64,000 nucleotides of DNA from Kiritimatiellia bacterium (GCA_050949565.1 JBMNFY010000017.1:1024001-1088000); one strand, 5' to 3'. Shown: positions 25,554 to 41,453, numbered from the stretch's first letter. The notes: generated by a model not told the origin, from the letters alone. Program-made: numbers and translations.

Positions 25554-28124
25554 TCAGTATTCCCTTTTGCGTTTGGCGCGCAGCGCATCCGCCGCGCGGT
25601 TCAACTTGCGATTCAACTGGATCGCCTCTTGATCGGGCTCCGGCGCGGCGACAGCCTGCTGCCAGTCGCGTGTCACGGTCGTGACTTCAGGCACCGCAAT
25701 CACGCCGTCCAGCAATGCGTCCAACAGGCTCAGGGTGCAGACGCGCACCGCGTTGGATTCTACCAGAAAGAGTTCCAGATTCTCGTCATGCACCCCCGGC
25801 GGCAACGGCGGCACGCAGGCCGGACAGCCGTTTTCACAGGAGCACTCGCGGATCATCCGGCGGCAAAGCTCCAGCGTCTCCTCGATCTTTTCGAACACCT
25901 TCTCCGCATAACCAGCTCCGCCCTCCAGCCGGTCGTACAAAAAGAGCGCGCTCTCGAACGCCATATCCTCCCAAGCAGGCGGCGGCAACGGCATGAATCC
26001 CTCGGTATCCGTAACCTCGTTGGGCGTTGGATGTTGAGCGTTGAGCGCTGAGCGCTCTTCCCCGCCTTCCTCCTCGCGGTCAAGCGGCGCGAGATCGGTC
26101 TCGAGGTCGGCCGGGTCAGACATGCTCACGCTTGACGCGGCGTGACGCAGGATATAGCGCAGGCCAAAAAGCGCGGCCGGTGCGAGCCGCTTGTCGCGTT
26201 CATCCAGCGCACGGCTCCACGGCTCGGGCGCGCGCAGGGCGAAGCCCACGGTGTCGTACTCAAAGGGCGGCAATGTAATCGGTCCGTAGCCCACATTCTC
26301 TAAGGTACGCTCGCGCACTTTCTTAAAGAGCTTGGGCTGCCTATTCACATGCAACGCGCCGAAACGCAGTTCCGAGTCGTGCAATGTCTTGCGTCCTTCA
26401 TCCGTTGTCAGGTCCAGCCGACTCTCCCACTCCGATTCGGTGTAGTAATCCACCTCCACCGGCTCGACGGTACACAGCTTCTTCTCAAGGTCCAGTTCCA
26501 TGGACATGTAACGACGGCCGAGATGCTGATAGATCGCGTCTTTGTAGAGTTCGGCGCGCGCACCGATTGGGTCGATCTCGCCGATCACCTCGCCGTGGCA
26601 GACGATCTCCACGTTATAGTCGGTCATGCCGCGCAGGTTGACGCCGCGGGCTGGATAGTCGGGCAGCGCGTAGCGCCAGCAACCTTTGTACGGCTTGAGC
26701 GTGCCGTCCTCTTTAAGAATGTCGAGCGCGAAGCCGTAGGCGCGCGTATCAAAGAGCGGTTCCTCATCGCGCAACGGATGTTCGTGCGCGGCGCATGGCA
26801 GGTGCTGCAACATGATGTACGGGTTGTCGGCATGCAGCCACGCCTGTTCGATCGGCGTTCCGGTAATAAATTCGGGGTGGTTCACCAAGTATTGATCCAC
26901 CGGCGCGTCCTGCGCCACGTAGAGAATCAACGCGCGGTTGCCTTTGCGCCCGACGCGCCCGGCCTGTTGCCAGAAACTGGCCAGCGTGCCCGGATGACCA
27001 GAGAGGATACAGACGTCGAGATCGCCGATGTCGATGCCCAACTCAAGCGCGTTGGTCGAGATGATAACGGTGATGCGCCCCTCGAAAAGATCCTTCTCAA
27101 GCTGACGCCGCTCGGCCGGCAACAATCCCCCGCGATACGGTTTGACCCGCTCTTTCAACTCGGGGTGACCGTCGGTAACTGCGCGCCAGAGACGCTCCAC
27201 CCGCTGCCGCGAGCGGCAGAAGCAGATGGTGCGGACGCCGGCGGCCGCAGCGGCGCGGATCAGCGGGATCGAAACCGAAGCCGGCCCCTTGCGGAAACGC
27301 GCGGAACCGGCACTCTCCACCAGCGGCGGATTAATCAGGTAAAGATCGCGGCGCGGCCGCGGCGAACCGTCGCGGTCGATCACTGTAAACGGACGGTGGA
27401 AGAGCGCCTGGACATGCTCGCCCGGATTGCCCACCGTCGCGGAGCAGCAGACAAAGCGCGGCGACGAGCCGTGCATGGCGCAAACGCGCAACAGACGGCG
27501 GAAAACATTGGAGACGTGCGACCCAAACGCGCCACGATAGGCATGCACCTCATCTACGACAATATACTTGAGGCGTCCCAGCAGATCACTCCAGCCGCGA
27601 TGGTGATTGGGCAGGATTCCCGCATGCAGCATGTCGGGATTGGTGATCACAAAGTCCGCCCCCTTCATGATCTTGCTGCGCTCCTCGCGCGGGGTGTCGC
27701 CATCAAAGGTGCCGAGTTTGCGGGTGCCGAGCGCAGCTTTAAGCAGTGCGCCGAGCGTACCTTCCTGATCGCGTGAAAGCGCCTTGGTCGGATAGAGCAG
27801 CAACACGCCGAAGGGCGCTTCGCTTTTGCAATAATCGCTCAAGATCGGCAACAGGAAGGCCAACGTCTTGCCCGAGGCCGTACGCGAGACCAGCACCGTA
27901 TCCTTACCGGCCGCGACCGCCTCGAACGCGTCGGCCTGATGCGAATAAAGCTGCTCAATCCCGCGCTCGCGCAGCACTGCGGCGAGGCGCGGATCGAGTC
28001 CGTCGGGGAAAGGCACCCCGTCCGCCTCTTCCGCCGGCATCACCTGATGCGCGCGGATTTGGCGTTCAAACCGCGTACGCAGCACCGTTTCAACGGCATC
28101 GATATGAGAACCCACTGATTGCAT
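25554..28124 (-). CDS. DEAD/DEAH-box helicase, Hrq1/MrfA (DUF1998) family
   Basis: LYSHQ, TASGKT, YPTKAL, DEVH, SATVGNP, TNALELGIDIG, QQAGRVGR and CSCENGCPAC motifs. Confidence 0.9.
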   Translation of the reverse strand: MQSVGSHIDAVETVLRTRFERQIRAHQVMPAEEADGVPFPDGLDPRLAAVLRERGIEQLYSHQADAFEAVAAGKDTVLVSRTASGKTLAFLLPILSDYCKSEAPFGVLLLYPTKALSRDQEGTLGALLKAALGTRKLGTFDGDTPREERSKIMKGADFVITNPDMLHAGILPNHHRGWSDLLGRLKYIVVDEVHAYRGAFGSHVSNVFRRLLRVCAMHGSSPRFVCCSATVGNPGEHVQALFHRPFTVIDRDGSPRPRRDLYLINPPLVESAGSARFRKGPASVSIPLIRAAAAAGVRTICFCRSRQRVERLWRAVTDGHPELKERVKPYRGGLLPAERRQLEKDLFEGRITVIISTNALELGIDIGDLDVCILSGHPGTLASFWQQAGRVGRKGNRALILYVAQDAPVDQYLVNHPEFITGTPIEQAWLHADNPYIMLQHLPCAAHEHPLRDEEPLFDTRAYGFALDILKEDGTLKPYKGCWRYALPDYPARGVNLRGMTDYNVEIVCHGEVIGEIDPIGARAELYKDAIYQHLGRRYMSMELDLEKKLCTVEPVEVDYYTESEWESRLDLTTDEGRKTLHDSELRFGALHVNRQPKLFKKVRERTLENVGYGPITLPPFEYDTVGFALRAPEPWSRALDERDKRLAPAALFGLRYILRHAASSVSMSDPADLETDLAPLDREEEGGEERSALNAQHPTPNEVTDTEGFMPLPPPAWEDMAFESALFLYDRLEGGAGYAEKVFEKIEETLELCRRMIRECSCENGCPACVPPLPPGVHDENLELFLVESNAVRVCTLSLLDALLDGVIAVPEVTTVTRDWQQAVAAPEPDQEAIQLNRKLNRAADALRAKRKREY

Positions 28125-28180
28125 AACCACCTGATGACAATGAGTGTAACACGCCGTGCGCGGGTCGTCTACTCTGCCGC

Positions 28181-28657
28181 TTATTTCGCGGCCACCAAAA
28201 CCAGCACGATCACGCCTGCCACAAATAATCCGATTGGAACGAACCATCGGGCGGCACTCACGATCTGGCATTCGAGTCTCCCCGATGGATCGTACCAGAC
28301 TAGGACATGAGTACCGACGGCGGAGCGCTCGATTCCGTAACCGGCATCTGTCTGCTTTCGAATTTTTCGCCCAGATTGATCGGTGAATTCCACGACAGGA
28401 GTGTAGTAGACCTTATCGTCGCTGTATTCCATTTTGTGGTCGACCACCGTGGCCGGAACCAACCGCCCGATGCGGACCATCCGTACATTCTTGACTCCCA
28501 GAGTGACGCCAAGGAGAACGAATACGCCCCCTACCACGACCCCGGACAGCCAGCCGTGGCAGAGAAAACAGTCGGCGCACATAAGGGCAATGAACAGGGC
28601 GGCAACAATCATACCCCGCCAGTCAAACCCTCTGATTCTCCCCTTCCACTGCTGCAT
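28181..28657 (-). CDS. DUF3592-like membrane protein
   Basis: TM helices, ATVVD...YTPVVEF and VGTHVLVWYDP motifs; AGGAGG RBS before ATG at 28657. Confidence 0.7.
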   Translation of the reverse strand: MQQWKGRIRGFDWRGMIVAALFIALMCADCFLCHGWLSGVVVGGVFVLLGVTLGVKNVRMVRIGRLVPATVVDHKMEYSDDKVYYTPVVEFTDQSGRKIRKQTDAGYGIERSAVGTHVLVWYDPSGRLECQIVSAARWFVPIGLFVAGVIVLVLVAAK

Positions 28658-28725
28658 GTTGTCCTCCTGTCGTACAGTGTTTGCTGTCTGTGCTTGACGG
28701 TAAACGATCCACCACAGACAGCTTG

Positions 28726-28755
28726 AGTGTATGGCCCTCTCCACTTGTGTGTCAA
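28726..28755 (-). promoter_or_regulatory. Sigma70-type promoter (TTGACA-18-TACACT) for the DUF3592 gene; repeated in every 729-bp unit
   Basis: Reverse strand reads TTGACA cacaagtggagagggcca TACACT. Confidence 0.65.
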
Positions 28756-29090
28756 GATTGACCGTTGAACAGGAGACGGCTCATGGAGACACTCGCCCCC
28801 CCCTGCGGTCAAAATAAAAAAACTTGTTTCATGGGCGTCCCGCCCATGAAACACAGGAAAGATGCCCGTGCCACACCTCTGCGTCTCTGCGCCTCTGCGT
28901 TAAACGAACCCGAACCATGAAACACATGAAACTTCATGAAAAATCATGCCATGCCTTTCCGTGTGTTCAGTGTGTTCTGTGGTTAAATAAACCCGAGCAG
29001 CGCCCCCAAAAAATCTTCGTGCCCTTCGCGCCTTCGTGTGAGAAACAAAAAACGGCAAAAAACGGCACGCACTCAACGTGTTCAACGGAG

Positions 29091-29119
29091 TTGAACCGCT
29101 CCCTCTTTTAGCCTATACT
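29091..29119 (+). promoter_or_regulatory. Sigma70-type promoter (TTGAAC-17-TATACT) for tRNA-Ser; repeated in every unit
   Basis: TTGAAC cgctccctcttttagcc TATACT, 16 nt upstream of the tRNA. Confidence 0.75.
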
Positions 29120-29135
29120 AATCGGCTTCTTTTTC

Positions 29136-29223
29136 GGAGGGGTGTCTGAGTGGTTTAAAGAACCGGTCTTGAAAACCGGCGTGCCGCAAGGTACCGGGGG
29201 TTCGAATCCCTCCCCCTCCGCCA
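29136..29223 (+). tRNA. tRNA-Ser(UGA), copy 1
   Basis: GGAGGGG acceptor stem, anticodon arm ccggt-cTTGAaa-accgg, long variable arm, GTTCGAATCC T-loop, encoded CCA. Confidence 0.97.
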
Positions 29224-29864
29224 CTTCCGAATCTTCAGCGCCCGATCAATCGTCGTCGTAACCGGCCGTCGTCGTGGCGGCGATCAATGCGCGGTAGCCC
29301 TTGGCGAGTTGCTCGCACACATGATCCACGGTGAACCGGCTCAACACGCGCGCGCGCCCCGCAGCGGCAAGGGTGGCGGCGCGGGCGGGGTCGTCCAGGA
29401 GCGCCAGCGCTTCGTCGGCCATGCGCAACGGAACGATCCACCACAGACAGCTTGAGTGTATGGCCCTCTCCACTTGTGTGTCAAGATTGACCGTTGAACA
29501 GGAGACGGCTCATGGAGACACTCGCCCCCCCCTGCGGTCAAAATAAAAAAACTTGTTTCATGGGCGTCCCGCCCATGAAACACAGGAAAGATGCCCGTGC
29601 CACACCTCTGCGTCTCTGCGCCTCTGCGTTAAACGAACCCGAACCATGAAACACATGAAACTTCATGAAAAATCATGCCATGCCTTTCCGTGTGTTCAGT
29701 GTGTTCTGTGGTTAAATAAACCCGAGCAGCGCCCCCAAAAAATCTTCGTGCCCTTCGCGCCTTCGTGTGAGAAACAAAAAACGGCAAAAAACGGCACGCA
29801 CTCAACGTGTTCAACGGAGTTGAACCGCTCCCTCTTTTAGCCTATACTAATCGGCTTCTTTTTC

Positions 29865-29952
29865 GGAGGGGTGTCTGAGTGGTTTAAAGAACCGGTCTTG
29901 AAAACCGGCGTGCCGCAAGGTACCGGGGGTTCGAATCCCTCCCCCTCCGCCA
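29865..29952 (+). tRNA. tRNA-Ser(UGA), copy 2
   Basis: Identical to copy 1. Confidence 0.95.
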
Positions 29953-30593
29953 CTTCCGAATCTTCAGCGCCCGATCAATCGTCGTCGTAACCGGCCGTCG
30001 TCGTGGCGGCGATCAATGCGCGGTAGCCCTTGGCGAGTTGCTCGCACACATGATCCACGGTGAACCGGCTCAACACGCGCGCGCGCCCCGCAGCGGCAAG
30101 GGTGGCGGCGCGGGCGGGGTCGTCCAGGAGCGCCAGCGCTTCGTCGGCCATGCGCAACGGAACGATCCACCACAGACAGCTTGAGTGTATGGCCCTCTCC
30201 ACTTGTGTGTCAAGATTGACCGTTGAACAGGAGACGGCTCATGGAGACACTCGCCCCCCCCTGCGGTCAAAATAAAAAAACTTGTTTCATGGGCGTCCCG
30301 CCCATGAAACACAGGAAAGATGCCCGTGCCACACCTCTGCGTCTCTGCGCCTCTGCGTTAAACGAACCCGAACCATGAAACACATGAAACTTCATGAAAA
30401 ATCATGCCATGCCTTTCCGTGTGTTCAGTGTGTTCTGTGGTTAAATAAACCCGAGCAGCGCCCCCAAAAAATCTTCGTGCCCTTCGCGCCTTCGTGTGAG
30501 AAACAAAAAACGGCAAAAAACGGCACGCACTCAACGTGTTCAACGGAGTTGAACCGCTCCCTCTTTTAGCCTATACTAATCGGCTTCTTTTTC

Positions 30594-30681
30594 GGAGGGG
30601 TGTCTGAGTGGTTTAAAGAACCGGTCTTGAAAACCGGCGTGCCGCAAGGTACCGGGGGTTCGAATCCCTCCCCCTCCGCCA
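30594..30681 (+). tRNA. tRNA-Ser(UGA), copy 3
   Basis: Identical to copy 1. Confidence 0.95.
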
Positions 30682-31322
30682 CTTCCGAATCTTCAGCGCC
30701 CGATCAATCGTCGTCGTAACCGGCCGTCGTCGTGGCGGCGATCAATGCGCGGTAGCCCTTGGCGAGTTGCTCGCACACATGATCCACGGTGAACCGGCTC
30801 AACACGCGCGCGCGCCCCGCAGCGGCAAGGGTGGCGGCGCGGGCGGGGTCGTCCAGGAGCGCCAGCGCTTCGTCGGCCATGCGCAACGGAACGATCCACC
30901 ACAGACAGCTTGAGTGTATGGCCCTCTCCACTTGTGTGTCAAGATTGACCGTTGAACAGGAGACGGCTCATGGAGACACTCGCCCCCCCCTGCGGTCAAA
31001 ATAAAAAAACTTGTTTCATGGGCGTCCCGCCCATGAAACACAGGAAAGATGCCCGTGCCACACCTCTGCGTCTCTGCGCCTCTGCGTTAAACGAACCCGA
31101 ACCATGAAACACATGAAACTTCATGAAAAATCATGCCATGCCTTTCCGTGTGTTCAGTGTGTTCTGTGGTTAAATAAACCCGAGCAGCGCCCCCAAAAAA
31201 TCTTCGTGCCCTTCGCGCCTTCGTGTGAGAAACAAAAAACGGCAAAAAACGGCACGCACTCAACGTGTTCAACGGAGTTGAACCGCTCCCTCTTTTAGCC
31301 TATACTAATCGGCTTCTTTTTC

Positions 31323-31410
31323 GGAGGGGTGTCTGAGTGGTTTAAAGAACCGGTCTTGAAAACCGGCGTGCCGCAAGGTACCGGGGGTTCGAATCCCTCC
31401 CCCTCCGCCA
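31323..31410 (+). tRNA. tRNA-Ser(UGA), copy 4
   Basis: Identical to copy 1. Confidence 0.95.
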
Positions 31411-31432
31411 CTTCCGAATCTTCAGCGCCCGA

Positions 31433-32587
31433 TCAATCGTCGTCGTAACCGGCCGTCGTCGTGGCGGCGATCAATGCGCGGTAGCCCTTGGCGAGTTGCT
31501 CGCACACATGATCCACGGTGAACCGGCTCAACACGCGCGCGCGCCCCGCAGCGGCAAGGGTGGCGGCGCGGGCGGGGTCGTCCAGGAGCGCCAGCGCTTC
31601 GTCGGCCATGCGCAACGGATCGCCGCCACGCACCAGAATGCCGGAAACGCCGGACTCAATGATCAAGGCGGGACCGGCTGACTCAGCGGCGATGACAGGA
31701 ACCGAGGCGACCATCGCCTCGCAGACGGCGCGTCCGAAGGGTTCGTCCTTCGCGGGGTGGAGCATCAGATCAAAGGCACTCAAGATCTGCGCGGCATCGT
31801 CGCAGTCACGGACCCAATGGAACTGATCGCCGATCCCGGCGGCCGCCACCATCTCTTCAAGCTGCGCGATCCACCGCGCATGCTCATTGAAAAGGTCACG
31901 CCCGACCACCACGAAATGCACGTCTGGCCTTTGACGGTGGATCTCTGCCGCGGCCGTAATAAAGGCGTCGTGCCGCTTCCAAGGGATAAGGTGCGCCACC
32001 ATGCCGACGATCGGCCCCTCAGCGGGCAGCCCGAAACGCTGACGCGCGGCGGCACGGGACACAGCGGTGAAGCGTTCCGGATCGATCCCATTGTGGACCA
32101 CGCGGATCCGGCCGAGGATGCGTGGCGAAAGGATTTCCACCAGGTATTCATCCACCGCGCCCGAGACAGCAATGATGCGCGAGGCCCTCTTTGCCGCATC
32201 GCGAGCGACCACGGTCGGCAGCCGTACGTCGCGCACATGCCACACCAACGGGATGTTTGATGAGATTGTGCGGGACGCGAGAAAAGCGGGAAGGCTGTTG
32301 GCGTGAACGATATCCGGCTTGACGGTGTGGGCAATCCGGTAAATCGTACTGGGTGCGCGCATCAGCTTAGCCGCCGTTGAGAAAAGGCCCCGCCCGCGCC
32401 GCGACGCACGCAATGGCGATACAGGAAAAACCGCGACACCGCTTGCCGACAAGCGGTCAAACAAGGGTCCCTGCGGAACGGCAGCTACAACCTCAACTCC
32501 GTGCGACGGCAATCGGGCACACACTTCGAGCAGACTGTACTGCGCACCCCCCAGTTCAGAAACTAGGTCAACCCACAACACACGCAT
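31433..32587 (-). CDS. Glycosyltransferase family 4
   Basis: GGAQ, VHNGID, WKRH and EPFGRAVCEAM motifs; its last ~186 bp are also present in each 729-bp unit. Confidence 0.9.
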   Translation of the reverse strand: MRVLWVDLVSELGGAQYSLLEVCARLPSHGVEVVAAVPQGPLFDRLSASGVAVFPVSPLRASRRGRGLFSTAAKLMRAPSTIYRIAHTVKPDIVHANSLPAFLASRTISSNIPLVWHVRDVRLPTVVARDAAKRASRIIAVSGAVDEYLVEILSPRILGRIRVVHNGIDPERFTAVSRAAARQRFGLPAEGPIVGMVAHLIPWKRHDAFITAAAEIHRQRPDVHFVVVGRDLFNEHARWIAQLEEMVAAAGIGDQFHWVRDCDDAAQILSAFDLMLHPAKDEPFGRAVCEAMVASVPVIAAESAGPALIIESGVSGILVRGGDPLRMADEALALLDDPARAATLAAAGRARVLSRFTVDHVCEQLAKGYRALIAATTTAGYDDD

Positions 32588-32719
32588 AGAAGGGAAATGA
32601 TACCAAATCATCCCCAAATTCAAAAGTCGGAAATTGAAAAATGAGTTCACTCCGTAGTAAACGATATTGCTCTATCCGGCGCAACGGCAAGCACAAGGCA
32701 ACGCAGAACGCCTTCATCA

Positions 32720-33477
32720 TCACGGCACCCAATCAAGCCAGACACAGAACCGCCACTTGTTTTCATGCCAGAGAACCGTGACATTGCCCCAATCTTTGTC
32801 CCCCCCCCCGCCGATGGGCTTGATTCGGGAACCTGCATCCACAAATTGGTGGCCGCTGGCCCATCGGAGCTATATGTGAACCCGAGAATGCTTGGCGGAT
32901 AATACGTCTGGTCACACAAGTCCGACATGATTTGCGGTGCAAGATTGACGATCGCGTTTGACTCGGCATTCGCGTCCGGGAGGGCATTCTTAAACATAAT
33001 GTAGTCGGGCAAAGCATTTGACGACATGCCAGGAAAGTTCGTTGACGAGACGAACGCCACAAACTCATAGGCTGCGGCCACGATGTTTGAGTTCGCGGCG
33101 GCGAACGCGAAGGCGTTGGTGTAGGCGTCGCTGAGTTTTTTGGGGATATGTAAAGCCAGACCTGCTGCACCGCTTGACACGACGTTGTCGGGGAAGTCGA
33201 TTGTCTCTGGATAATACGGGGTAATGTCTGGATTGTGAAGATGCGCGACAAAAGCGGGGTCATCAGCACCCAGCCTGAACTGCGTCGCTTTTCCCCACTC
33301 ACTCAAGCATATCCGCAAATCAGCCGTGATCGCCGACTTAGCCGATTCGGAAAGATTGGTGTCAGCAAACGCGAGGTTGATCGCGTTTGAGTGTGTCCCG
33401 TAATAAACGACATTGCTTTGGCCGGTGCAGTAGCAAGCACAAAGCACGGCGGCAATTAAAACGGTCGGTGTTTTCAT
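32720..33477 (-). CDS. Exported partner/immunity-like paralog 6; frameshifted at a G10 run (32800-32809)
   Basis: Shared signal peptide and SDAYTNAFAFAAANSN core; the shifted frame gives DKDWGNVTVLWHENKWRFCVWLDWVP*, matching the family C-terminus. Confidence 0.75.
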
Positions 33478-33480
33478 GGG

Positions 33481-34230
33481 TTATTGCGGTAGCTCATAAT
33501 GCGGATTCTTTTCCCAAATGCTGAATTTCCACTTCCCGTCATGCCAGATGGCGGTGACTGGCCCCCATTCGATATATCCGCACACGGGGGATGACGAGGG
33601 GATGTAGAGCCACAGATTGGTCGGCGCCGGCCCTTCTGGACTGTAGTGGAAGCCGAGAACGCTCGGCGGATAGTAGGATGACCCATGAACGGAATTTGTC
33701 AGGTCGTGGAACGCCAACTGATATAACTGCGGTGTGGCTTGGTTGAACAGGAAGTAATTTGCTATTTGGTTGGAGGTGACGCTTAAAAAATTGGTTGAGG
33801 AGACGAATGCCACGAATTCATAGGCTGCGGCCACGATGTTGGAGTTGGCGGCGGCGAACGCGAAGGCGTTGGTGTAAGCGTCGCTGAGTTTTTTGGGGAT
33901 ATGTAAAGCCAGACCTGCTGCACCGCTTGACACGACGTTGTCGGGGAAGTCGATTGTCTCTGGATAATACGGGGTAATGTCTGGATTGTGAAGATGCGCG
34001 ACAAAAGCGGGGTCATCAGCACCCAGCCTGAACTGCGTCGCTTTTCCCCACTCGCTCAAACACACCCGCAAATCAGCCGTGATCGCCGACTTAGCCGATT
34101 CGGAAAGATTGGTGTCAGCAAACGCGAGACTGATCGGGCTTGCGTTCGTCCCGTAGTAAACGACGTTGCTCTGCCCGGCGCAATGGCAAGCACAAAGCAT
34201 AACGGTAATTAAAACGAATTTCGTTTTCAT
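33481..34230 (-). CDS. Exported partner/immunity-like paralog 5
   Basis: Family motifs QSNVVYYGTNAS, CLSEWG, SDAYTNAFAFAAANSN and WHDGKWKF. Confidence 0.8.
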   Translation of the reverse strand: MKTKFVLITVMLCACHCAGQSNVVYYGTNASPISLAFADTNLSESAKSAITADLRVCLSEWGKATQFRLGADDPAFVAHLHNPDITPYYPETIDFPDNVVSSGAAGLALHIPKKLSDAYTNAFAFAAANSNIVAAAYEFVAFVSSTNFLSVTSNQIANYFLFNQATPQLYQLAFHDLTNSVHGSSYYPPSVLGFHYSPEGPAPTNLWLYIPSSSPVCGYIEWGPVTAIWHDGKWKFSIWEKNPHYELPQ

Positions 34231-34242
34231 GTCAGTATTCCC

Positions 34243-34581
34243 CTATGGCAGAACAGGGCGTCTTTTGACGTACTTGTCTGTGTTGGGCCCCACGTAAATG
34301 CAGGGGCGGTTGAGATTGCGGTTGATGTCCGTGGACAGCACCGGATTGCCATCAAGTTGCAAAGCGCGGATGAACGGATAAACATCTTGATCTCTGTGGC
34401 TTTTTGCTGACGAGGGTATCCCCAGTGAATCGAATGGTGCGTACAGGTCGGCTGTCCCTGCCGCGATCGGAGCAGTAATGAGTTGTCCTTGGTCGTCATA
34501 CATCGCCTGGTGCCCATGCTTGTCGGACACCGGGTTTGAACGCATCTCGTACTTCGCGTCATGGTGCAAATACGTGTCCAT
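34243..34581 (-). CDS. Orphan C-terminal module (AMOP-like putative toxin tip), nearly identical to the tip of 38073-40193
   Basis: LHHDAKYEMRS...HGHQAMY...AGTADLY...HRDQDVYPF...DKYVKRRPVLP. Confidence 0.75.
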   Translation of the reverse strand: MDTYLHHDAKYEMRSNPVSDKHGHQAMYDDQGQLITAPIAAGTADLYAPFDSLGIPSSAKSHRDQDVYPFIRALQLDGNPVLSTDINRNLNRPCIYVGPNTDKYVKRRPVLP

Positions 34582-34616
34582 GGGTTAAAAAACAAAAAAA
34601 CAGGTGTCTTGCGTTC

Positions 34617-35393
34617 TCACGGCATCCATTCATTCCAAGAACAAAACACCCATTTGCCATTGTGCCAGAGAACGGAATAACCTGACCACTCCATCATATT
34701 GTTAGAGGGAAGTGTCGAACTTGGAATATTTAACCACAGATTGGAGGCCGAAGGTCCCTCTGGGCTATAATAGAAACCCAGAACACTCGGAGTGTAAAAG
34801 GTCTGGTAGCATAACCCCGGAATGATTTGCGATGCAAGGCGAACGATCTCGTTTGACTCGGTGATGGTTTCGGAATACTTGTTTTTAAGCAGGATGTAGT
34901 TCGGCAAAGCGTTCGACGAGAGGGAAACAAAATTACTGGATGAAATGAACGCCACGAACTCGTAGGCGGCGGCCACGACGTTGGAATTTGCGGCGGCGAA
35001 CGCGAAGGCGTTGGTGTAGGCGTCGCTGAGTTTTTTGGGGATATAAAGGGCGGGGCCTGACGGGGTGTTTGTGACACCTTTAGGAAATTCAATGTTTTCT
35101 GGATAATGCGGGCTGATGGAGGGACGTTCAAGATAGCCGATCAGTCCCGGCTCATCGGCACCGAGATCAAGGCTTAAGTACGTCTCTTTGCCCCATTCGC
35201 TCAAACATATCTGCAAATCAGCCACAATAGAAGCCTGCGCTGACACGGAAAGGCTGGCGTCAGCAAACGCGACATTTATCGGGCTTGCGTTTGTCCCATA
35301 GTAAACGACGTTACTCTGTCCGTGACACTGATTGACCAGTAACAACACGGATACGAAGAGGATGGAAGGACTAACTGTTTTTTTGATTTTCAT
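34617..35393 (-). CDS. Exported partner/immunity-like paralog 4
   Basis: Family motifs; distinct signal peptide; start overlaps the stop of the upstream orphan tip. Confidence 0.8.
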   Translation of the reverse strand: MKIKKTVSPSILFVSVLLLVNQCHGQSNVVYYGTNASPINVAFADASLSVSAQASIVADLQICLSEWGKETYLSLDLGADEPGLIGYLERPSISPHYPENIEFPKGVTNTPSGPALYIPKKLSDAYTNAFAFAAANSNVVAAAYEFVAFISSSNFVSLSSNALPNYILLKNKYSETITESNEIVRLASQIIPGLCYQTFYTPSVLGFYYSPEGPSASNLWLNIPSSTLPSNNMMEWSGYSVLWHNGKWVFCSWNEWMP

Positions 35394-35758
35394 CGTTGTT
35401 TTCCTGTTGGTAAAACGGGGCGCCTTTCGACGTACTTGTCCGTGTTGGGTCCCCTGTAAATGCAGGGGCGGTTGAGATTGCGGTTGATGTATCGAGGGAG
35501 CACCGGATTGCCATCGAGTTGCAACGCTCTAAGAAACGGTTGGACATCTTGTTTCAAATGCTTATTCCCTGTCCTTGCGCGCAACGTGTCGTTGGCATGG
35601 TATGGAGCCGCAATATCCGCCGTTCCTGCGGCGATGGGAGTTTCAATCAGCACGCCATTCGCATCGTATGTGGCCTGATGGCCATGCCCACCTGAAATAG
35701 GACCCGAGCGCATCTCGTACTTCGCGTCATGGTGAAGGAAGGCGTCTTTCGTTCTCAC
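35390..35758 (-). CDS. Orphan C-terminal module, divergent variant
   Basis: FLHHDAKYEMRS...HGHQATY...AGTADIAAPYHANDTLRARTGNKHLKQDVQPF; possible GTG start overlapping the upstream TGA (GTGA). Confidence 0.7.
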   Translation of the reverse strand: MRTKDAFLHHDAKYEMRSGPISGGHGHQATYDANGVLIETPIAAGTADIAAPYHANDTLRARTGNKHLKQDVQPFLRALQLDGNPVLPRYINRNLNRPCIYRGPNTDKYVERRPVLPTGKQR

Positions 35759-36498
35759 GGCACCCAACTGTCCCAGATGCAGAACTTCCATTTGTTGTCA
35801 TGCCAGATGGCAGGAAAGGCATTCCATCCTTTCTCATCCATATAACGAAGAGGGATCGAGCAAGGAACAAGCATCCATAAATTTGTAGCGGCAGGCCCCT
35901 CGGCACTGTATTGAAAGCCCAGAATGCTGGGGGGGTAAAACGTTTGACACCGTAACTCGGATATGGTCTCCTGTGCGTCGGCAATAATCTCGTTCGAAGT
36001 GGTGTTTTTTTGCAGGACATAATTAGGAAGGTCATTGGAAGAAATGGCAACAAAGTTGCTGGAAGAGACGAACGCCACGAACTCGTAGGCGGCGGCCACG
36101 ATGTTGGAATTTGCGGCGGCGAACGCGAAGGCGTTGGTGTAGGCATCGCTGAGCGCCTTGGGAATCTGCAGTGCGGGGCCTGACGGGGTGTTTGTGACAC
36201 CATCAGGGAAGTCAATGCTTTCTGGATAATGCGGGCTGATAGAAGGACGTTGAAGGTAGCCGATCAGCCCCGGCTCATCGGCACCAAGATCAAGACTTAA
36301 ATACGTCTTTTTGCCCCACTCGCTCAAGCATATCTGCAAATCAGCCACAATGGAGGCTTTTGCCGACACGGAGAGGTTTGGGTCAACGAATGAGACGCTA
36401 ATCGAACTTGCATTGGTTCCGTAGTAAACGACGTTACTCTGTCCGGCACAATGGCAAGCACAAAGCACGGCGACAATTAAAGCACTCGTTGTTTTCAT
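35755..36498 (-). CDS. Exported partner/immunity-like paralog 3
   Basis: Family motifs. Confidence 0.8.
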   Translation of the reverse strand: MKTTSALIVAVLCACHCAGQSNVVYYGTNASSISVSFVDPNLSVSAKASIVADLQICLSEWGKKTYLSLDLGADEPGLIGYLQRPSISPHYPESIDFPDGVTNTPSGPALQIPKALSDAYTNAFAFAAANSNIVAAAYEFVAFVSSSNFVAISSNDLPNYVLQKNTTSNEIIADAQETISELRCQTFYPPSILGFQYSAEGPAATNLWMLVPCSIPLRYMDEKGWNAFPAIWHDNKWKFCIWDSWVP

Positions 36499-36510
36499 GT
36501 CGGTATTTCC

Positions 36511-36570
36511 TCAAGGCAGAACCGGGCGTCTTTCGACGTACTTGTCCGTGTTTGGCCCCGTGTAGATGCC
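36511..36570 (-). pseudogene. 19-codon stub of the tip domain (GIYTGPNTDKYVERRPVLP*)
   Basis: Manual translation; followed by the same ggaaataccgacATG linker seen after the full-length gene. Confidence 0.8.
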
Positions 36571-36581
36571 TTTCAGGATTC

Positions 36582-37313
36582 TCAATCGCGCCATACGCAG
36601 AATTTCCATTTTCCATCATGCCAGATGGCGGAGAAGGCATGCCATCCTTTCCCGTCCATATAACGAAGAGGGATCGAGCACGGAACAAACATCCATAAAT
36701 TTGTAGCGGCAGGCCCCTCGGTACTGTATTGAAAACCTAGAATGCTGGGGGGGTAGTACGTTTGACACCGTAACTCGGATATAGTTTCCTGTGCATCGGC
36801 AATAATCTCATTTGTGGTGGTGTTCTTTTGCAGGACATAATTGGGTAGGTCGTTAGAGGAAATCGCAACAAAGTTGCTGGACGAGACAAACGCCACAAAC
36901 TCATAGGCCGCAGCCACGATATTGGAGTTCGCGGCGGCGAACGCGAAGGCGTTGGTGTAGGCATCGCTGAGTTTTTTGGGAATATGCAGGGCATAGCCGC
37001 ATAAATCGCTGGACACAACATTATCAGGGAAGTCAAGCGTTTCAGGATAATATGGTGTGATCTTGGGATTGTAAAGATGCGCAACAAAAGCGGGATCATC
37101 AGCGCCAAGCCTGAACTGCGTCGCTCTCCCCCACTCACTCAAGCATATCCGTAAATCCGATGTGATGGCCGATTTAGCGGATTCTGAAAGATTGGTATCT
37201 ACAAACGCGAGGCTGATCGGGCTTGCATTTGTCCCATAGTAAACGACGTTACTCTGTCCGGCACAATGGCAAGCACAAAGCACGGCGACAATTAAAACGG
37301 TCGGTGTTTTCAT
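36582..37313 (-). CDS. Exported partner/immunity-like paralog 2
   Basis: Family motifs. Confidence 0.8.
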   Translation of the reverse strand: MKTPTVLIVAVLCACHCAGQSNVVYYGTNASPISLAFVDTNLSESAKSAITSDLRICLSEWGRATQFRLGADDPAFVAHLYNPKITPYYPETLDFPDNVVSSDLCGYALHIPKKLSDAYTNAFAFAAANSNIVAAAYEFVAFVSSSNFVAISSNDLPNYVLQKNTTTNEIIADAQETISELRCQTYYPPSILGFQYSTEGPAATNLWMFVPCSIPLRYMDGKGWHAFSAIWHDGKWKFCVWRD

Positions 37314-37319
37314 GGGGTG

Positions 37320-38060
37320 TTACGGTCGAGTATAAAAGGGATTCTTTTCCCAAATGCTGAATTTCCACTTTCCGTCATGCCAGATGGCGGTGACTGGCCC
37401 CCATTCGATATATCCGCACACGGGGGATGACGAGGGGATGTAGAGCCACAGATTGGTCGGCGCCGGCCCTTCTGGACTGTAGTGGAAGCCGAGAACGCTC
37501 GGCGGATAGTAGGATGACCTGTGGACTGAATTTGTCAGGTCGTGGAACGCCAACTGATATAACTGCGGTGTGGCTTGGTTGAACAGGAAGTAATTTGCTA
37601 TTTGGTTGGAGGTGACGCTTAAAAAATTGGTTGAAGAAACAAACGCCACAAACTCATGGGCTGCGGCCACGATGTTGGAGTTGGCGGCGGCGAACGCAAA
37701 GGCGTTGGTGTAGGCATCGCTGAGCGCCTTGGGGATATGCAGAGCCAAACCTGATGCGCCGTTTGACACAACATTTTCAGGGAACATTATGTCTTCGGGG
37801 TAATGCGGACAGTGGGTAGGGTTGTCGATGTATCCGACATACCCCCCCTCGTTCATCATGCGCAATTCGCCCTTCCCCCACTCACTCAAGCATATCCGTA
37901 AATCCGCCGTGATCGCCGATTTAGCGGATTCTGAAAGATTGGTATCTACAAACGCGAGGCTGATCGGGCTTGCATTTGTCCCATAGTAAACGACGTTACT
38001 CTGTCCGGCACAATGGCAAGCACAAAGCACGGCGACAATTAAAGCACTCGTTGTTTTCAT
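37320..38060 (-). CDS. Exported partner/immunity-like paralog 1 (cognate, directly downstream of the full-length gene)
   Basis: Family motifs; starts 12 bp after the stop of the 706-aa gene. Confidence 0.8.
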   Translation of the reverse strand: MKTTSALIVAVLCACHCAGQSNVVYYGTNASPISLAFVDTNLSESAKSAITADLRICLSEWGKGELRMMNEGGYVGYIDNPTHCPHYPEDIMFPENVVSNGASGLALHIPKALSDAYTNAFAFAAANSNIVAAAHEFVAFVSSTNFLSVTSNQIANYFLFNQATPQLYQLAFHDLTNSVHRSSYYPPSVLGFHYSPEGPAPTNLWLYIPSSSPVCGYIEWGPVTAIWHDGKWKFSIWEKNPFYTRP

Positions 38061-38072
38061 GTCGGTATTTCC

Positions 38073-40193
38073 TTAAGGCAGAACCGGGCGTCTTTCGACG
38101 TACTTGTCCGTGTTGGGTCCCCTGTAAATGCAGGGGCGGTTGAGATTGCGGTTGATGTCCGTGGGCAGCACTGGGTTACCATCAAGTTGCAAAGCGCGGA
38201 TGAACGGATAAACATCTTGATCTCTGTGGCTTTTTGCTGACGAGGGTATTCCCCGTGAATCGAATGGTGCGTACAGGTCGGCTGTCCCTGCCGCGATCGG
38301 AGCAGTAATGAGTTGTCCTCCTATGTTGTACATCGCTTGGTGCCCATGCCCGCCGGACGTCGGTTTTGAACGCATCTCGTACTTCGCGTCATGATGAAGG
38401 AAGGTGTTTTTCGCTTCGGGAGCATGCCATCGTCCGCCGATGCCGAAAGGATTGGGTTCCGGATCGACGGCATTTGTGGTTCCATTGGAAATATTGATGG
38501 TGATGCTGGCAAACGGGCGCGGCAGGTTTGTCGTCCAACTGATGTCGGCGTTTTGCGCGTACCAATCATCGAATTTTGCCTGTGTGTCAGACCTGTTGAC
38601 GACCACCCAAAGCTTGTCGAAAATAACGCCTGGTTCCGAATCATTGGGCTTGTAGTGCAGCTTGACCAGCGAAATGGCGGGCTTAAATTCCTTAGGATTT
38701 TCGCCAAAGATCAGTTCGCCGTTGCCGTTGACCGTCAGGTTGTCGGAGGTGAAGCTCAGCTTGTCAATATTAGGCATGTTCAGATAGCAGTCGTCCAGCA
38801 GGTCGAACAAGTCAATCTTCTCGCCGGCGCTCCAGACCACGCCGAGGCAGTGCTCGGTGGGGTTGAGGTCGGTCTTGTCGGGCCCGATGTAGGGGAAGAT
38901 GTTGCGGGTGTTGACGGCGGAGTGACTGAAGCCGATGTCCCAACGCGGCCCGCCGTCACAGATGCAGCCGATCCCGCCGCAAAGGGATGAATCGTGGTAA
39001 CCCGGCTCGTGCCAATAGTTTTGTTCCGCGCCGAAGACCCCGCCGACGGCCTCGCACAGCCTGACCCGGAAGATGACCCTGCCGTGCAGGAAGGGGTAGG
39101 CCGCGTTCGCCACGGGCTGGGTCACCGTGCACTCGATGCAGGGCTGCCGCGCAAAGAAGGTATCCAGCGCGTCCTCTTTGGGGATGAGCGGGGTGTCGCC
39201 CTTGACGCCGTTCATCGCCATGCTGACGGTATCGCAGCCGATCATCGCGTAATCCGGCCAGGTGCACGAGTCATTTTCGCACAGGCAGTACCAGCCGCTC
39301 CCGCCCAGGAACACTGTGCCATCCGTCATGCGCAGGGGCTGGACCGTGACGGACGGGGCCGGTGTATCCAGAGGGCGGACGGGACCGGCGGGCGGCGGCG
39401 CGAGCAGGAGGAGGCCGTTCACGCTGTCCGGGTTGCCGGGCGGGGGCGGCGGCGTCTGGCCGGCCGTGAAAACGACGGTGTTGGCGTGCGCCGGAAGGAC
39501 GGACATTTCGCAGAGCCACGGCCCGTTGGTCGCGCCGGGGAGTTCCGCGAGCGTTCCGGGCAGGGGGTCGAGCGTGAGCGTGACCGGCCCGCCGTAGGCC
39601 GCCCGGAGGCGCACGCGGCCGGTCCCGGCCCGGACCGGGAAGCTGTTGGTCGTGAGCGCGTCGCCCACCGTGAGCCACACGGGCCGGTCGGTGCGCGTCT
39701 CCAGCCAGAAATCCACGGTGCCCGCCTCCTCCGAGTAGGGCGGCGTGTTGTAGACGAATCCCGAGTAGGCCACGGCAAAACCCTCCGTGTTGGTGGCGGT
39801 CAGCCTCTGCCACGTCTGCGCGTCCCAGCCCAGCCACGCCAGCCACTGGGCGTGGCTGACCGTCGGCACGACCCGGAAGGCGGCGTCCAGCCCCGCGCCG
39901 CGCTTCTCGAGGTCCGACCAGCCGTCGCCCATGGTCGAGAAGGTGCGCGGGTCGGAGCCGAAGGCGAACTCCTCCAGGTCGGTCAGCCCGTCGCCGTCCC
40001 GGTCGAGGTGGGAGTCCGCGACGGCCGGGTCGCTGAACGTCCTCCGCTCCCAGGCGTCGGGGATGCCGTCGCCGTCGGTGTCCGCCGCGGGCAGCCCCGC
40101 GTCCTGATACCACTGGGGAAGGGCGGCCCGCCCCGGCAAGACCGCGGCCAGCAAACCGGCCGCTGCGCAACAGATTGGAAGCATGGTTTTCAC
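38073..40193 (-). CDS. Exported polymorphic-toxin-like protein: DxDGDG Ca-binding repeats, Cys-rich trunk, AMOP-like C-terminal tip
   Basis: Signal peptide, DTDGDGIPDAWE and DRDGDGLTDLEE, GSDP, Cys clusters; tip repeated downstream as orphans. Confidence 0.7.
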   Translation of the reverse strand: MKTMLPICCAAAGLLAAVLPGRAALPQWYQDAGLPAADTDGDGIPDAWERRTFSDPAVADSHLDRDGDGLTDLEEFAFGSDPRTFSTMGDGWSDLEKRGAGLDAAFRVVPTVSHAQWLAWLGWDAQTWQRLTATNTEGFAVAYSGFVYNTPPYSEEAGTVDFWLETRTDRPVWLTVGDALTTNSFPVRAGTGRVRLRAAYGGPVTLTLDPLPGTLAELPGATNGPWLCEMSVLPAHANTVVFTAGQTPPPPPGNPDSVNGLLLLAPPPAGPVRPLDTPAPSVTVQPLRMTDGTVFLGGSGWYCLCENDSCTWPDYAMIGCDTVSMAMNGVKGDTPLIPKEDALDTFFARQPCIECTVTQPVANAAYPFLHGRVIFRVRLCEAVGGVFGAEQNYWHEPGYHDSSLCGGIGCICDGGPRWDIGFSHSAVNTRNIFPYIGPDKTDLNPTEHCLGVVWSAGEKIDLFDLLDDCYLNMPNIDKLSFTSDNLTVNGNGELIFGENPKEFKPAISLVKLHYKPNDSEPGVIFDKLWVVVNRSDTQAKFDDWYAQNADISWTTNLPRPFASITINISNGTTNAVDPEPNPFGIGGRWHAPEAKNTFLHHDAKYEMRSKPTSGGHGHQAMYNIGGQLITAPIAAGTADLYAPFDSRGIPSSAKSHRDQDVYPFIRALQLDGNPVLPTDINRNLNRPCIYRGPNTDKYVERRPVLP

Positions 40194-40203
40194 GTCATCG
40201 CAC

Positions 40204-41182
40204 TCATTTTAGGAGAAGCACCGACCCCCACACAAGCCCGTAGCTGAGTCCCGCGTCGATCGCGGCCCGGCGCTGCTCCGGCGAGGCGGGGTGCGGGGCA
40301 AGACCCCAGCGGATCGAGAGATAGTTGGCCACGCCCGCCCGGACATCCGCGTCCGGCGGCGTGTTGAACCCCACGATCTCCGCGATCTCCCCCCCGCCAG
40401 CCGCGATTCCAGGCGGGGCGTCCGGCTGTGCCGCCGAAAAACATTTCGGTGAGATCGGCGGGACTTTCGAAGTCGACGGCGACAACCTGCCACTGCTGCG
40501 GGATGAATTGCTGTGTCAGCGACAGCTCCGCCGCCCCCGGCTCCGTCTGGCGGCTGCCGTCGGAAACGAGCCGCAGGCGCGCCGTTTCCGGCGCGTCAAC
40601 GAGCGTGGCGAGGTCGGCGGCGTCCCCGCGCGTCACGAGCATGAGGGTCTGGACCGTGACCGCCGCGACATTGGAGAAACAGACGGGGGAGACGGGGTTC
40701 GTCGCGTTGCCCGCGAACGAGAGCGCGTTGAGCCTGGGCGTGGCGGGCACGGCGGCGGGCAGGCTCCAGCCCGGCTCGCCGCTGAACGCGGCCGCGACCC
40801 TGGGGTCGGCGGCGAGTGTGGCCTGGAGCACAATGCGGGAGGGTTCGGACTGGACGCCGGACGGTCCGCCCTGCGTCGCGGGCAAGGGCGGCTGCGTTGA
40901 GGGCGAGGCGGGCTGCGCCTGTTGTTGCTGAGCGACCGCGCCGCCCGCCGGCTGTCCGGTGTGCGGCGACGCGGCGGTGCTGTTCACGTTGGTCGGCTTC
41001 TGCGCGACCACCGTGCAATACACGCATAACACGGCCATGATGGCCTTCGTGGAAGGCGGCAAGGTTGCCCAGTTCCGCCATACGTCGCGGAACCACCCGC
41101 GCTCCAAACCGAGGGCGATGAACCAGAGCGTCCACAGGATGCTGACCGTGATCACGCAATAAAGGTATGAAGGAGTTGGCAT
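40204..41182 (-). CDS. Membrane-anchored protein with a LamG/ConA-like C-terminus; frameshift at a G7 run (40389-40395)
   Basis: N-terminal TM helices; deleting one G gives WRGEIAEIVGFN...VANYLSIRWG, a typical LamG-like ending. Confidence 0.55.
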
Positions 41183-41453
41183 ATCCAAATAACGTTAGAG
41201 CTGACTCTGGGCGGCTCTTTCTTGGGCCAGAAGGTGACGACTGCCCCCGCCCTTGCGCCACCTCCACATTCAATCACACGGGGACTCTACTACATCACGG
41301 GCCGATCAGTCAACCCGAAAGCGGTTTCAAACGGCGAACGGCACAGCACGTTGACGGTCTGTCGACTAAAATGATAGAGTCCCAGTGTATCGCAAGTGAT
41401 GTTTCGTATGTTTCTTGGTATGGTGAATCGCTGAAACTATATGGGGGAGAATC

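Follow-up and report, generated by a model that had tools for sequence, protein, structure and literature searches.

A 64,000-nucleotide (nt) stretch of a Kiritimatiellia genome (GCA_050949565.1, JBMNFY010000017.1:1024001-1088000; hereafter ‘the window’) carries, on its minus strand between 32.6 and 41.2 kb, a gene for a 332-amino-acid (aa) protein, a gene for a 706-aa protein and then six co-directional paralogs of 243-276 aa that we call partners (g1 to g6). The partner genes are mosaics that arose by recombination, and copies of the C-terminal (CT) domain of the 706-aa protein stand ahead of some of them. In order of transcription and in window coordinates, with the N and C types and the core block taken up below, the features are as follows (ORF, open reading frame):

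40190..41188, minus strand: 332-aa protein with hydrophobic N-terminal segments, the upstream gene, with counterparts ahead of the loci of contigs C1 and C7
38073..40193, minus strand: 706-aa protein with a hydrophobic leader, TSP3/Ca-binding repeats (aa 38-104), a conserved middle and a C-terminal CT, as seen from Pfam matches and paralogs
38076..38483, minus strand: CT domain, the last 136 aa of the 706-aa protein
37320..38060, minus strand: partner g1, 246 aa, N type A and C type X, core at 37641-37724
36582..37313, minus strand: partner g2, 243 aa, B/Y, with no CT ahead of it, core at 36888-36971
36514..36567, minus strand: 18 aa left over from the 3′-end of a CT, lying between g2 and g3 (94% identical over these 18 aa in tblastn)
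35755..36498, minus strand: partner g3, 247 aa, C/Y, core at 36070-36153
35390..35791, minus strand: orphan CT cassette o1, a 133-aa ORF with a beta-type central region, without the large protein's N-terminal body
34617..35393, minus strand: partner g4, 258 aa, C/Z, its leader peptide unlike that of the others, core at 34947-35030
34243..34581, minus strand: orphan CT cassette o2, a 112-aa ORF, alpha-type
33481..34230, minus strand: partner g5, 249 aa, B/X, with an h1-like backbone, core at 33805-33888
32647..33477, minus strand: partner g6, B/Z′, frameshifted at a G10 tract, core at 33052-33135
32652..32712, minus strand: 5′ remnant of a seventh paralog, a leader plus a QSNIVYYG-like stretch with an in-frame stop

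The genes of this array overlap or are separated by 3-83 nt, with g1 starting 12 nt past the large gene. Each partner begins with M-K and a hydrophobic stretch followed by C-(A/H)-G-Q-S-N, which by inspection we predict to be a Sec leader; the 706-aa protein has a hydrophobic leader, again by inspection, and its N-terminal part matches two Pfam families of bacterial TSP3/Ca-binding repeats (PF18884, E 2.5e-8; PF03495, E 5.1e-6). Of the 706-aa protein, the orphan cassettes reproduce no more than the final ~110-130 aa, o1 lying ahead of g4 and o2 ahead of g5. Paralogs of the large protein occur on contig C1 and at C17:743219-745858, and the layout of a CT followed by a partner is repeated at C1:52914-58021 (large protein, h1, CT, h2, h3, CT), while the locus at C17:743219-746632 holds an 879-aa large protein, then k1 and remnants. 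At the end of contig C7 (253568-254972) stand the upstream membrane-protein gene and the beginning of a large protein (137 aa), the remainder of which the assembly lacks; in all, three or four loci of this kind are present in this genome. There are five (L088-L092) in G245, a distant genome from the same order, where a CT is followed by 1-4 partners, one locus having four of them in tandem. The large proteins are recombinant too, since the 879-aa paralog has a different, unrelated N-terminal half joined to the shared C-terminal body at LPGATNG-WLCEM. That N-terminal half consists of repeats of the form ‘...LT.AP.LPA..L...CY..MF..C..L’.

An initial description of this array, made from the DNA alone (the sequence-only reading), named three N-terminal and three C-terminal motifs among the six genes, joined at a near-invariant 28-aa block, and all of these are present in the translations where it placed them. 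Protein alignment of g1-g6 gives N types A (g1), B (g2, g5, g6) and C (g3, g4) and C types X (g1, g5), Y (g2, g3) and Z (g4, g6), and hence the combinations AX, BY, CY, CZ, BX and BZ, which are all different, as had been claimed; the two approximate positions given as examples of the switch overlap the core blocks mapped here in g1 (37641-37724) and g6 (33052-33135). Type Z is loose: between g4 and g6, C-half identity in 50-nt windows is only ~57-76%, and the two C-halves fall into separate clusters at 70% aa identity.

Partner g6 runs out of frame after its G10 tract (32800-32809), the ORF as read spanning 32647-33477, and the homologous C-terminus (…LWHENKWRFCVWLDWVP) lies in another frame and ends near 32720. 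A contig from one sequencing run (X7) has two bases fewer at 32800, together with three nearby substitutions, and there the frame would be restored; h3 on C1 is likewise frameshifted at a G run in the same position. These frameshifts may represent phase variation, or strain or paralog differences.

Recombination among the partners is evident in a DNA alignment of 10 paralogs, comprising the six window genes, h1, h2 and h3 of contig C1, and k1 (C17:745855-746598). First, the pairwise homoplasy index (PHI) is 0.452 against a permuted mean of 0.663 (standard deviation 0.005; 354 informative sites), a value that none of 1000 permutations reached. Second, maximum-likelihood trees built separately from the N-half (nt 1-345) and the C-half (nt 463-785) are incongruent: in approximately unbiased (AU) tests the C-half tree is rejected on the N-half data (delta lnL 180.3, p 2.5e-7), the N-half tree is rejected on the C-half data (delta lnL 353.9, p 4.7e-6), and the whole-gene tree is rejected on both (p 0.0085 and 0.00023). 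Third, pairs of genes share exact tracts with sharp borders, outside of which the same pairs are only 45-65% identical. The N-half is itself a mosaic of such tracts (77-188 nt), with g1 identical to g3 over aligned nt 1-77 (77 nt) and to g2 over 36-164 (129 nt), and g5 identical to h1 over 1-188 (188 nt) and to g6 over 196-371 (176 nt); towards the 3′-end, g1 is identical to h1 over 457-563 and to g5 over 590-737 (148 nt). Both marks of a recombinant mosaic family, segment incongruence and sharp-bordered exact tracts, are thus found here, and the mosaics originated by homologous recombination or gene conversion, as the sequence-only reading had proposed. The partner paralogs of G245 behave in the same way, with PHI again reached by 0/1000 permutations and two pairs with discordant halves, one of which (q6/q11) is 91% identical in its first part and 58% in its last.

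A GARD-like dynamic programme (FastTree likelihoods, 703 segments, 20-nt grid, conservative parameter count) places the best single breakpoint at the core's 3′ edge (aligned nt 460), which lowers the corrected Akaike information criterion (AICc) from 11570 to 10787. The conserved core is therefore the main switch point, as first suggested, and linkage across the wider family described below is lowest there as well. The accompanying picture of one core separating two modules falls short: the next breakpoints fall at nt 200 (SEWGK), 80 (QSNVVYYG), 340 (the core 5′ edge) and 720 (IWHDGKW), the best model has five breakpoints (AICc 10030.5, a drop of 1540), and the family shows a second linkage trough at aa ~60. 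There are at least 3-4 independently assorting segments, as these extra breakpoints (nt 200, 80 and 720) and the trough at SEWGK require; all conserved islands serve as exchange points, the core being the principal one.

Exchange also reaches across loci. The active CT+h1 cassette at C1:54699-55779 has a copy in the window, namely o2+g5 (34572 to 33483). The two agree fully over ~450 nt (~34500-34050) and are 90-100% identical over 33900-33483; between these stretches lies an N-variable patch of ~150 nt (34050-33900) in which the two are 44-64% identical and in which g5 equals g6. By its sequence this patch looks like a short gene-conversion tract between adjacent paralogs, of which either may be the donor.

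The same shuffling is seen across the partner family, which has 228 members at E <= 1e-3 in a collection clustered at 90% (91 representatives at 50% identity), all unnamed or ‘hypothetical’ and, where taxon names are given, mostly from Kiritimatiellia. For 182 distinct near-full-length proteins of 225-285 aa, own copies and public ones together, we compared the N-variable part (g1 aa 62-108) with the C-half (aa 143-238) and found their identities uncorrelated (Spearman rho 0.03). Among 16471 pairs, 569 are at least 90% identical in the N part and below 60% in the C-half, 831 show the reverse, and 268 are at least 90% identical in both. Clustering at 70% yields 24 types of N part and 28 of C-half, which occur in 65 combinations, to be compared with 81.4 +/- 2.4 expected under free association and 28 under full linkage. 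Flank-to-flank linkage drops at aa ~60 (the SEWGK block, r 0.30) and over aa 105-145 (r 0.19-0.29), compared with r 0.67-0.87 within modules. Family-wide, the assortment of N-variable with C-half modules is close to free.

These module types are old and under purifying selection. Within types the ratio of nonsynonymous to synonymous divergence (dN/dS) is 0.04-0.22, with dS often saturated, and pairwise dN/dS gives no sign of positive selection, none exceeding 1. In the core, dS is 0.3-1.0 and dN about 0-0.075, which means that the block is conserved as protein and is not merely homogenized DNA. The family is patchily distributed, being present in 7/301 genomes of a phylum sample (this genome included) and in 0/12 other genomes of its own family, and multi-copy in this genome and in G245.

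In a structural model of the partner (predicted local distance difference test, pLDDT, 88.9; predicted template-modelling score 0.84) an N-domain (aa ~22-110) and a C-domain (aa ~111-240) can be distinguished. No structural match was found for the N-domain, and Foldseek searches with the whole model gave none at E <= 0.001 (best E >= 0.02). The best structural neighbours of the C-domain (~122-242) are all NTF2-like cones with Z 4.2-6.0, a range common for unrelated models; they include the NTF2 domain of Csd6 (Z 6.0, 101 residues aligned, root-mean-square deviation, rmsd, 4.1) and Tai3, a type VI secretion immunity protein (4hz9_B; Z 4.9, 93 aligned, rmsd 4.5). On the model, the C-domain is putatively NTF2-like. 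The invariant core corresponds to helices 111-126 and 128-141, the first two of the C-domain, which places the principal exchange point at a structural domain boundary.

Segmental gene-conversion mosaics and cassette-type antigenic or phase variation are known from bacterial surface-protein families. The partners resemble these in having variable segments between conserved homology islands, in the short-patch exchange among paralogs, and in the homopolymer tract (G10) that puts one copy, g6, out of frame; they differ in being complete genes with their own leaders, instead of silent cassettes serving one expression site, and in that the exchanged units are structural domains of a two-domain protein.

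The partners also covary with the CT domains that precede them. Within this genome the X partners g1, g5 and h1, whose N types are A, B and D, all follow CTs of alpha type (…QLITAP…PSSAKSHRDQDVYPFIR…; 3/3), g4 and h2 (Z and Z′) follow beta-type CTs (2/2), and k1 (type V) follows a gamma-type CT (1/1). A broader set of 87 fetched loci and three of our own gave 63 adjacent CT-partner pairs, 55 of them unique and 52 in a close clade (core at least 87% identical to g1), in which the DNA order of segments is c1-c2-c3-leader-lead-Nvar-core-C, c2 being the CT centre. Across these 52 pairs c2 is correlated with the partner C-half (Mantel r 0.34, reached by 0/5000 permutations), though this is the segment most distant from it, as against r 0.14 for the lead, 0.12 for the N-variable part and 0.14 for the core, all of them nearer; the N-variable part and the C-half correlate at r 0.05. 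Two partners with the same C type share their c2 type in 64/139 cases, versus 112/1187 when the C types differ, and the corresponding counts for the N-variable part are 36/150 and 140/1176. It is suggestive, on this covariation, that the C-domain is the part of the partner matched to the variable central region of the CT. A second coupling, between the N-terminal part of the CT (before GHGHQ) and the N-variable part, looked promising in six own-genome pairs and failed in the 52 (Mantel r 0.13; adjusted mutual information 0.15; same type in 30/150 vs 135/1176). Complex prediction for the CT with g1 gave a score of 0.00, below the mark, which with the controls unfolded speaks neither for nor against a complex.

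The CT itself forms the C-terminal end of 101 proteins (388-1236 aa), whose N-terminal architectures vary and include TSP3, Ig-like, FG-GAP and NIDO domains. An alignment of 33 sequences has 16 invariant positions (H30, G47, Q49, A65, G66, A68, H86, D90, Q99, D101, G102, N103, P104, Y128, R132 and P133), whose polar residues (H, H, D, Q, N, R) suggest an active or metal-binding site. Four weak leads point to the AMOP domain (PF03782): it matches six CT relatives at 12.0-19.8 bits (best E 9.1e-4), below its gathering score of 25, and these matches are collinear with profile positions 6-128 of 143; a profile comparison of the CT gives Isthmin-1 (9c6t_A) at E 0.1 with shared motifs; 20% of the members of an Atlas feature neighbour of the CT carry AMOP; and, with a poor CT model (pLDDT 61.8), Foldseek ranks 9c6t_A first of 350,542 chains (E 0.54, TM 0.32). 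VIA places 9c6t at rank 27 (Z 2.5), which does not support AMOP. Given this pLDDT and Z values of at most 3.3 in the VIA-wide search, we assign no fold to the CT, and the window's own CT has no PF03782 match. In the HMMER alignment the likeness lies in an R-S stretch, an H in the GHGHQ region, A-G-T and H-x3-D-V-L-P-[FW]-I. AMOP is disulfide-rich (PMC12000326), whereas the CT has no cysteine in invariant or nearly invariant columns, the own-genome copies sharing a single one (RPCIY). We therefore call the CT ‘AMOP-like’ with moderate confidence; by the Pfam criterion it is not a member of AMOP.

Taken together, the cassette architecture and the covariation of CT centre and C-half make a receptor or immunity repertoire, as the sequence-only reading had it, plausible. 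Specifically, we read the partners as an immunity-like or cognate-binder repertoire in a polymorphic-effector-type locus that involves two undescribed families, and give this a probability of roughly 0.5-0.6. A Sec-exported 706-aa protein would present a weakly AMOP-like CT at its C-terminus, followed downstream by six or seven tandem exported two-domain partners that are interleaved with promoterless orphan CT cassettes. Short-tract conversion (~80-450 nt), with QSNVVYYG, CLSEWGK, the 28-aa core and IWHDGKW as islands of homology, carries segments from one neighbouring paralog to another and also across loci that lie on separate contigs. Each partner would be a cognate CT binder, immunity-like or inhibitor-like, with its C-domain matched to the variable centre of the CT; the extra partners would be orphan ‘immunity’ copies, as in polyimmunity strings, and shuffling would yield a combinatorial repertoire.

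Polymorphic toxin systems are the closest published model. Orphan cassettes and polyimmunity strings are known from contact-dependent inhibition (CDI), Rhs and MafB systems (Zhang et al. 2012, PMC3482391; see also Poole et al. 2011, PMC3150448, and Kirchberger et al. 2017, PMC5361080), and the first of these papers describes toxin-immunity cassettes 3′ of the full-length gene, immunity strings left behind by successive replacements, immunity families with an NTF2 fold and immunity proteins with signal peptides. The window locus is similar in several respects. A large exported multi-domain protein ends in a cassette domain, which is variable (moderately, and within one family), and a small gene stands directly downstream; truncated CT+partner cassettes and extra partners are strung 3′ of the large gene; the orphan cassette of one locus (o2+g5) is the active cassette of another (C1); and the large proteins share a C-terminal body while their N-termini can differ, as in the 879-aa paralog. 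The likeness to NTF2-fold immunity proteins (Imm-NTF2; Tai3 of the Tae3-Tai3 pair; the Csd6 and Pgp2 domains) would consist in a modelled C-domain that superposes on their cones and in a predicted export like that of periplasmic immunity proteins, whereas the Z values lie in a possibly generic range, Pfam gives no Imm-NTF2 match and the partners have an extra N-terminal domain. In a further departure from polymorphic toxin systems, the partner gene is itself a mosaic of several segments, and its two halves assort independently of each other. The known route of diversification in polymorphic effector loci is an exchange of toxin tips together with whole immunity genes; here the putative partner is modular, its domains assort almost freely and one of them tracks the variable region of the effector. 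If function follows, pair specificity would be built combinatorially from a few old modules, unlike specificity gained by point mutation or whole-cassette replacement. In a limited search of part of the open-access literature we found no description of a mosaic partner gene with independently assorting halves, and no work joining Kiritimatiell* with toxin and immunity protein or AMOP with polymorphic toxin.

A number of observations weigh against the immunity-like reading. The CT copies of this genome are 68-88% identical and always the same domain, unlike the unrelated toxin folds exchanged in polymorphic toxin systems, and neither they nor the partners match any Pfam or NCBIfam family at E <= 0.1, or any described Tox, Ntox or Imm family. 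None of the 16 neighbouring ORFs scanned is a type V, VI or VII secretion gene; there are only housekeeping and carbohydrate genes. AMOP, as the closest known relative of the CT, would by analogy suggest adhesion or interaction without known catalysis. The coupling of c2 and C-half is imperfect (8/14 pairs for the commonest type) and could be inflated by short-patch conversion that spares the flanks. To these we add three points about the assemblies, taken up further below: the exact g4 protein is on one contig and exact g5 on two, the Logan contigs do not bridge a core, and most public family members come from short-read metagenome contigs, in which chimeras at the core are possible.

The main rival, which we consider unlikely, is a non-toxic recognition pair. 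The AMOP-like CT would act as a ligand or in adhesion, and the partners would be its polymorphic receptors at the surface or in the periplasm, with the locus setting kin or self recognition as in allorecognition pairs and recombination diversifying the identity tags. It draws on the AMOP leads (the six sub-threshold relatives, Isthmin-1 at E 0.1 and the Foldseek rank 1 at E 0.54), AMOP being presented in PMC12000326 as a platform for adhesion or other interactions that has no known enzymatic activity. Its fold, as in 9c6t, is a five-stranded half-barrel flanked by helices. Adjacent covarying polymorphic gene pairs would fit such a system equally, and the N-terminal TSP3 repeats of the large protein weakly match cell-cohesion and gliding proteins. 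On the other hand, promoterless orphan CTs and strings of partners that lack a CT are the toxin-immunity signature set out in PMC3482391, the many invariant polar residues of the CT suggest an active or metal-binding site, and the partners, on sequence inspection, have no membrane anchor beyond the leader peptide.

Beyond the immunity-like reading as such, we tentatively offer a bolder set of three ideas, doubtful when taken jointly. The partner may be a two-key protein, its NTF2-like C-domain matched to the variable central loop of the adjacent CT, around CT aa ~65-80, and its N-domain to a second, unlinked determinant; conversion may keep recombining old, balanced modules into new N x C specificities and so act as a generator of repertoires for immunity or self-recognition; and the CT may be a bacterial relative of metazoan AMOP, with a NIDO-AMOP-like architecture already present in bacteria. 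In P0307, a 548-aa protein from an Arenicella metagenome-assembled genome, the CT comes after a NIDO domain (PF06119, E 2.9e-30). The NIDO-AMOP order is known from animal MUC4 and SUSD2, and P0307 gives a hint that this architecture arose in bacteria or was transferred. There is thus a possible bacterial root for AMOP, whose biochemical role in animals is still unclear, and the CT and its partner form a tractable pair of uncharacterized families in anaerobic-digester Kiritimatiellia.

A less probable explanation still is that the mosaics are a neutral by-product, in which ordinary exported paralogs, perhaps chaperones or inhibitors of the large protein, undergo ectopic conversion without any repertoire function. 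Gene conversion is expected among tandem paralogs with common conserved islands, no pairwise dN/dS exceeds 1, and the frameshifts in g6 and h3 and the remnant of a seventh copy are consistent with decay. However, conversion normally homogenizes, whereas among the 182 proteins deeply diverged modules persist under purifying selection and assort almost freely; the CT centre tracks the distal C-half more than it does nearer segments; and the family is patchy (7/301) and multi-copy where present, as are accessory conflict systems.

Finally, the mosaics are probably not assembly chimeras formed by misjoining paralog reads at shared exact stretches, a very improbable explanation given that the proteins of g1, g2 and g3 are found again, unchanged, in several sources (on 13, 10 and 7 contigs, respectively), g4 and g5 being the weak cases. 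These counts come from public collections, NCBI, JGI/IMG and ENA, where the 276-aa frameshifted form of g6 is on one contig and its cluster has four other 276-aa members, located on additional contigs. Among independent metagenome contigs, L009 (99.9%) and L010 cover the whole of g1 and L033 (99.6%) and L034 the whole of g2, and L042 (98.0%) spans 32720-33834, from g6 into g5, all with the same neighbours. The 1.97-Mb contig holds resolved internal repeats of 3-7 kb at 99.5-100% identity, which suggests a long-read assembly. Moreover, random chimeras at the core would erase the coupling of CT centre and C-half that we observe, and this coupling also argues against wholesale chimerism among the public members. 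Pointing towards an artefact, Logan contigs from four runs of four studies are only ~190-300 nt long across the array and end in shared stretches; they confirm segments, many with 0 differences, and since none bridges a core they neither confirm nor refute linkage across it. The fourth locus is unfinished at the end of C7, and contigs C12 and C16 share 34.7 kb at 99.5%, a haplotig-like duplication; strain mixtures are present. Loose ends at 34043 and 37764 and the joints seen in the same comparison, considered as new combinations, are explained instead by the paralogous C1 locus, the end at 34043 continuing into the N-variable sequence of h1.

The surroundings of the array add some minor observations. 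It is flanked by genes for a family 4 glycosyltransferase (GT4; 31433-32650), at whose start the seventh-paralog remnant ends, and a family 123 glycoside hydrolase (GH123). A promoter scan was unconvincing (10 promoter-like sites vs 4.8 +/- 2.0 expected, mostly within genes), and terminator-like sites at the locus are at chance level. The 332-aa upstream protein has no Pfam or NCBIfam match; its gene is frameshifted at the 3′-end relative to intact 327-aa copies on C1 (51920-52903) and C7 (253568-254551), with the conserved C-terminus in an ORF at 40204-40485. G runs lie near this end at 40225-40229, 40389-40395 and 40534-40538. As context only, the sequencing runs come from anaerobic digester, bioreactor and biogas habitats; 16 of the 24 runs listed hold at least half of the sampled sequence words, and the 19 runs that hold them come from 14 studies.

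Self-BLAST of the window reveals a 729-bp unit in ~4 head-to-tail copies at 100% identity (28703-31619), which is the duplicated 3′-end of the GT4 gene plus downstream sequence and may be either a real tandem amplification or a long-read assembly artefact; Tandem Repeats Finder, with its period limit of 500, reported no repeats over 27500-40500. A peptide string, ‘...TSASLRLCVKR...’, occurs in every 729-bp unit (28824-31298) and again just inside the start of the 879-aa ORF (C17:743219), a recurrence that suggests a short dispersed repeat element.

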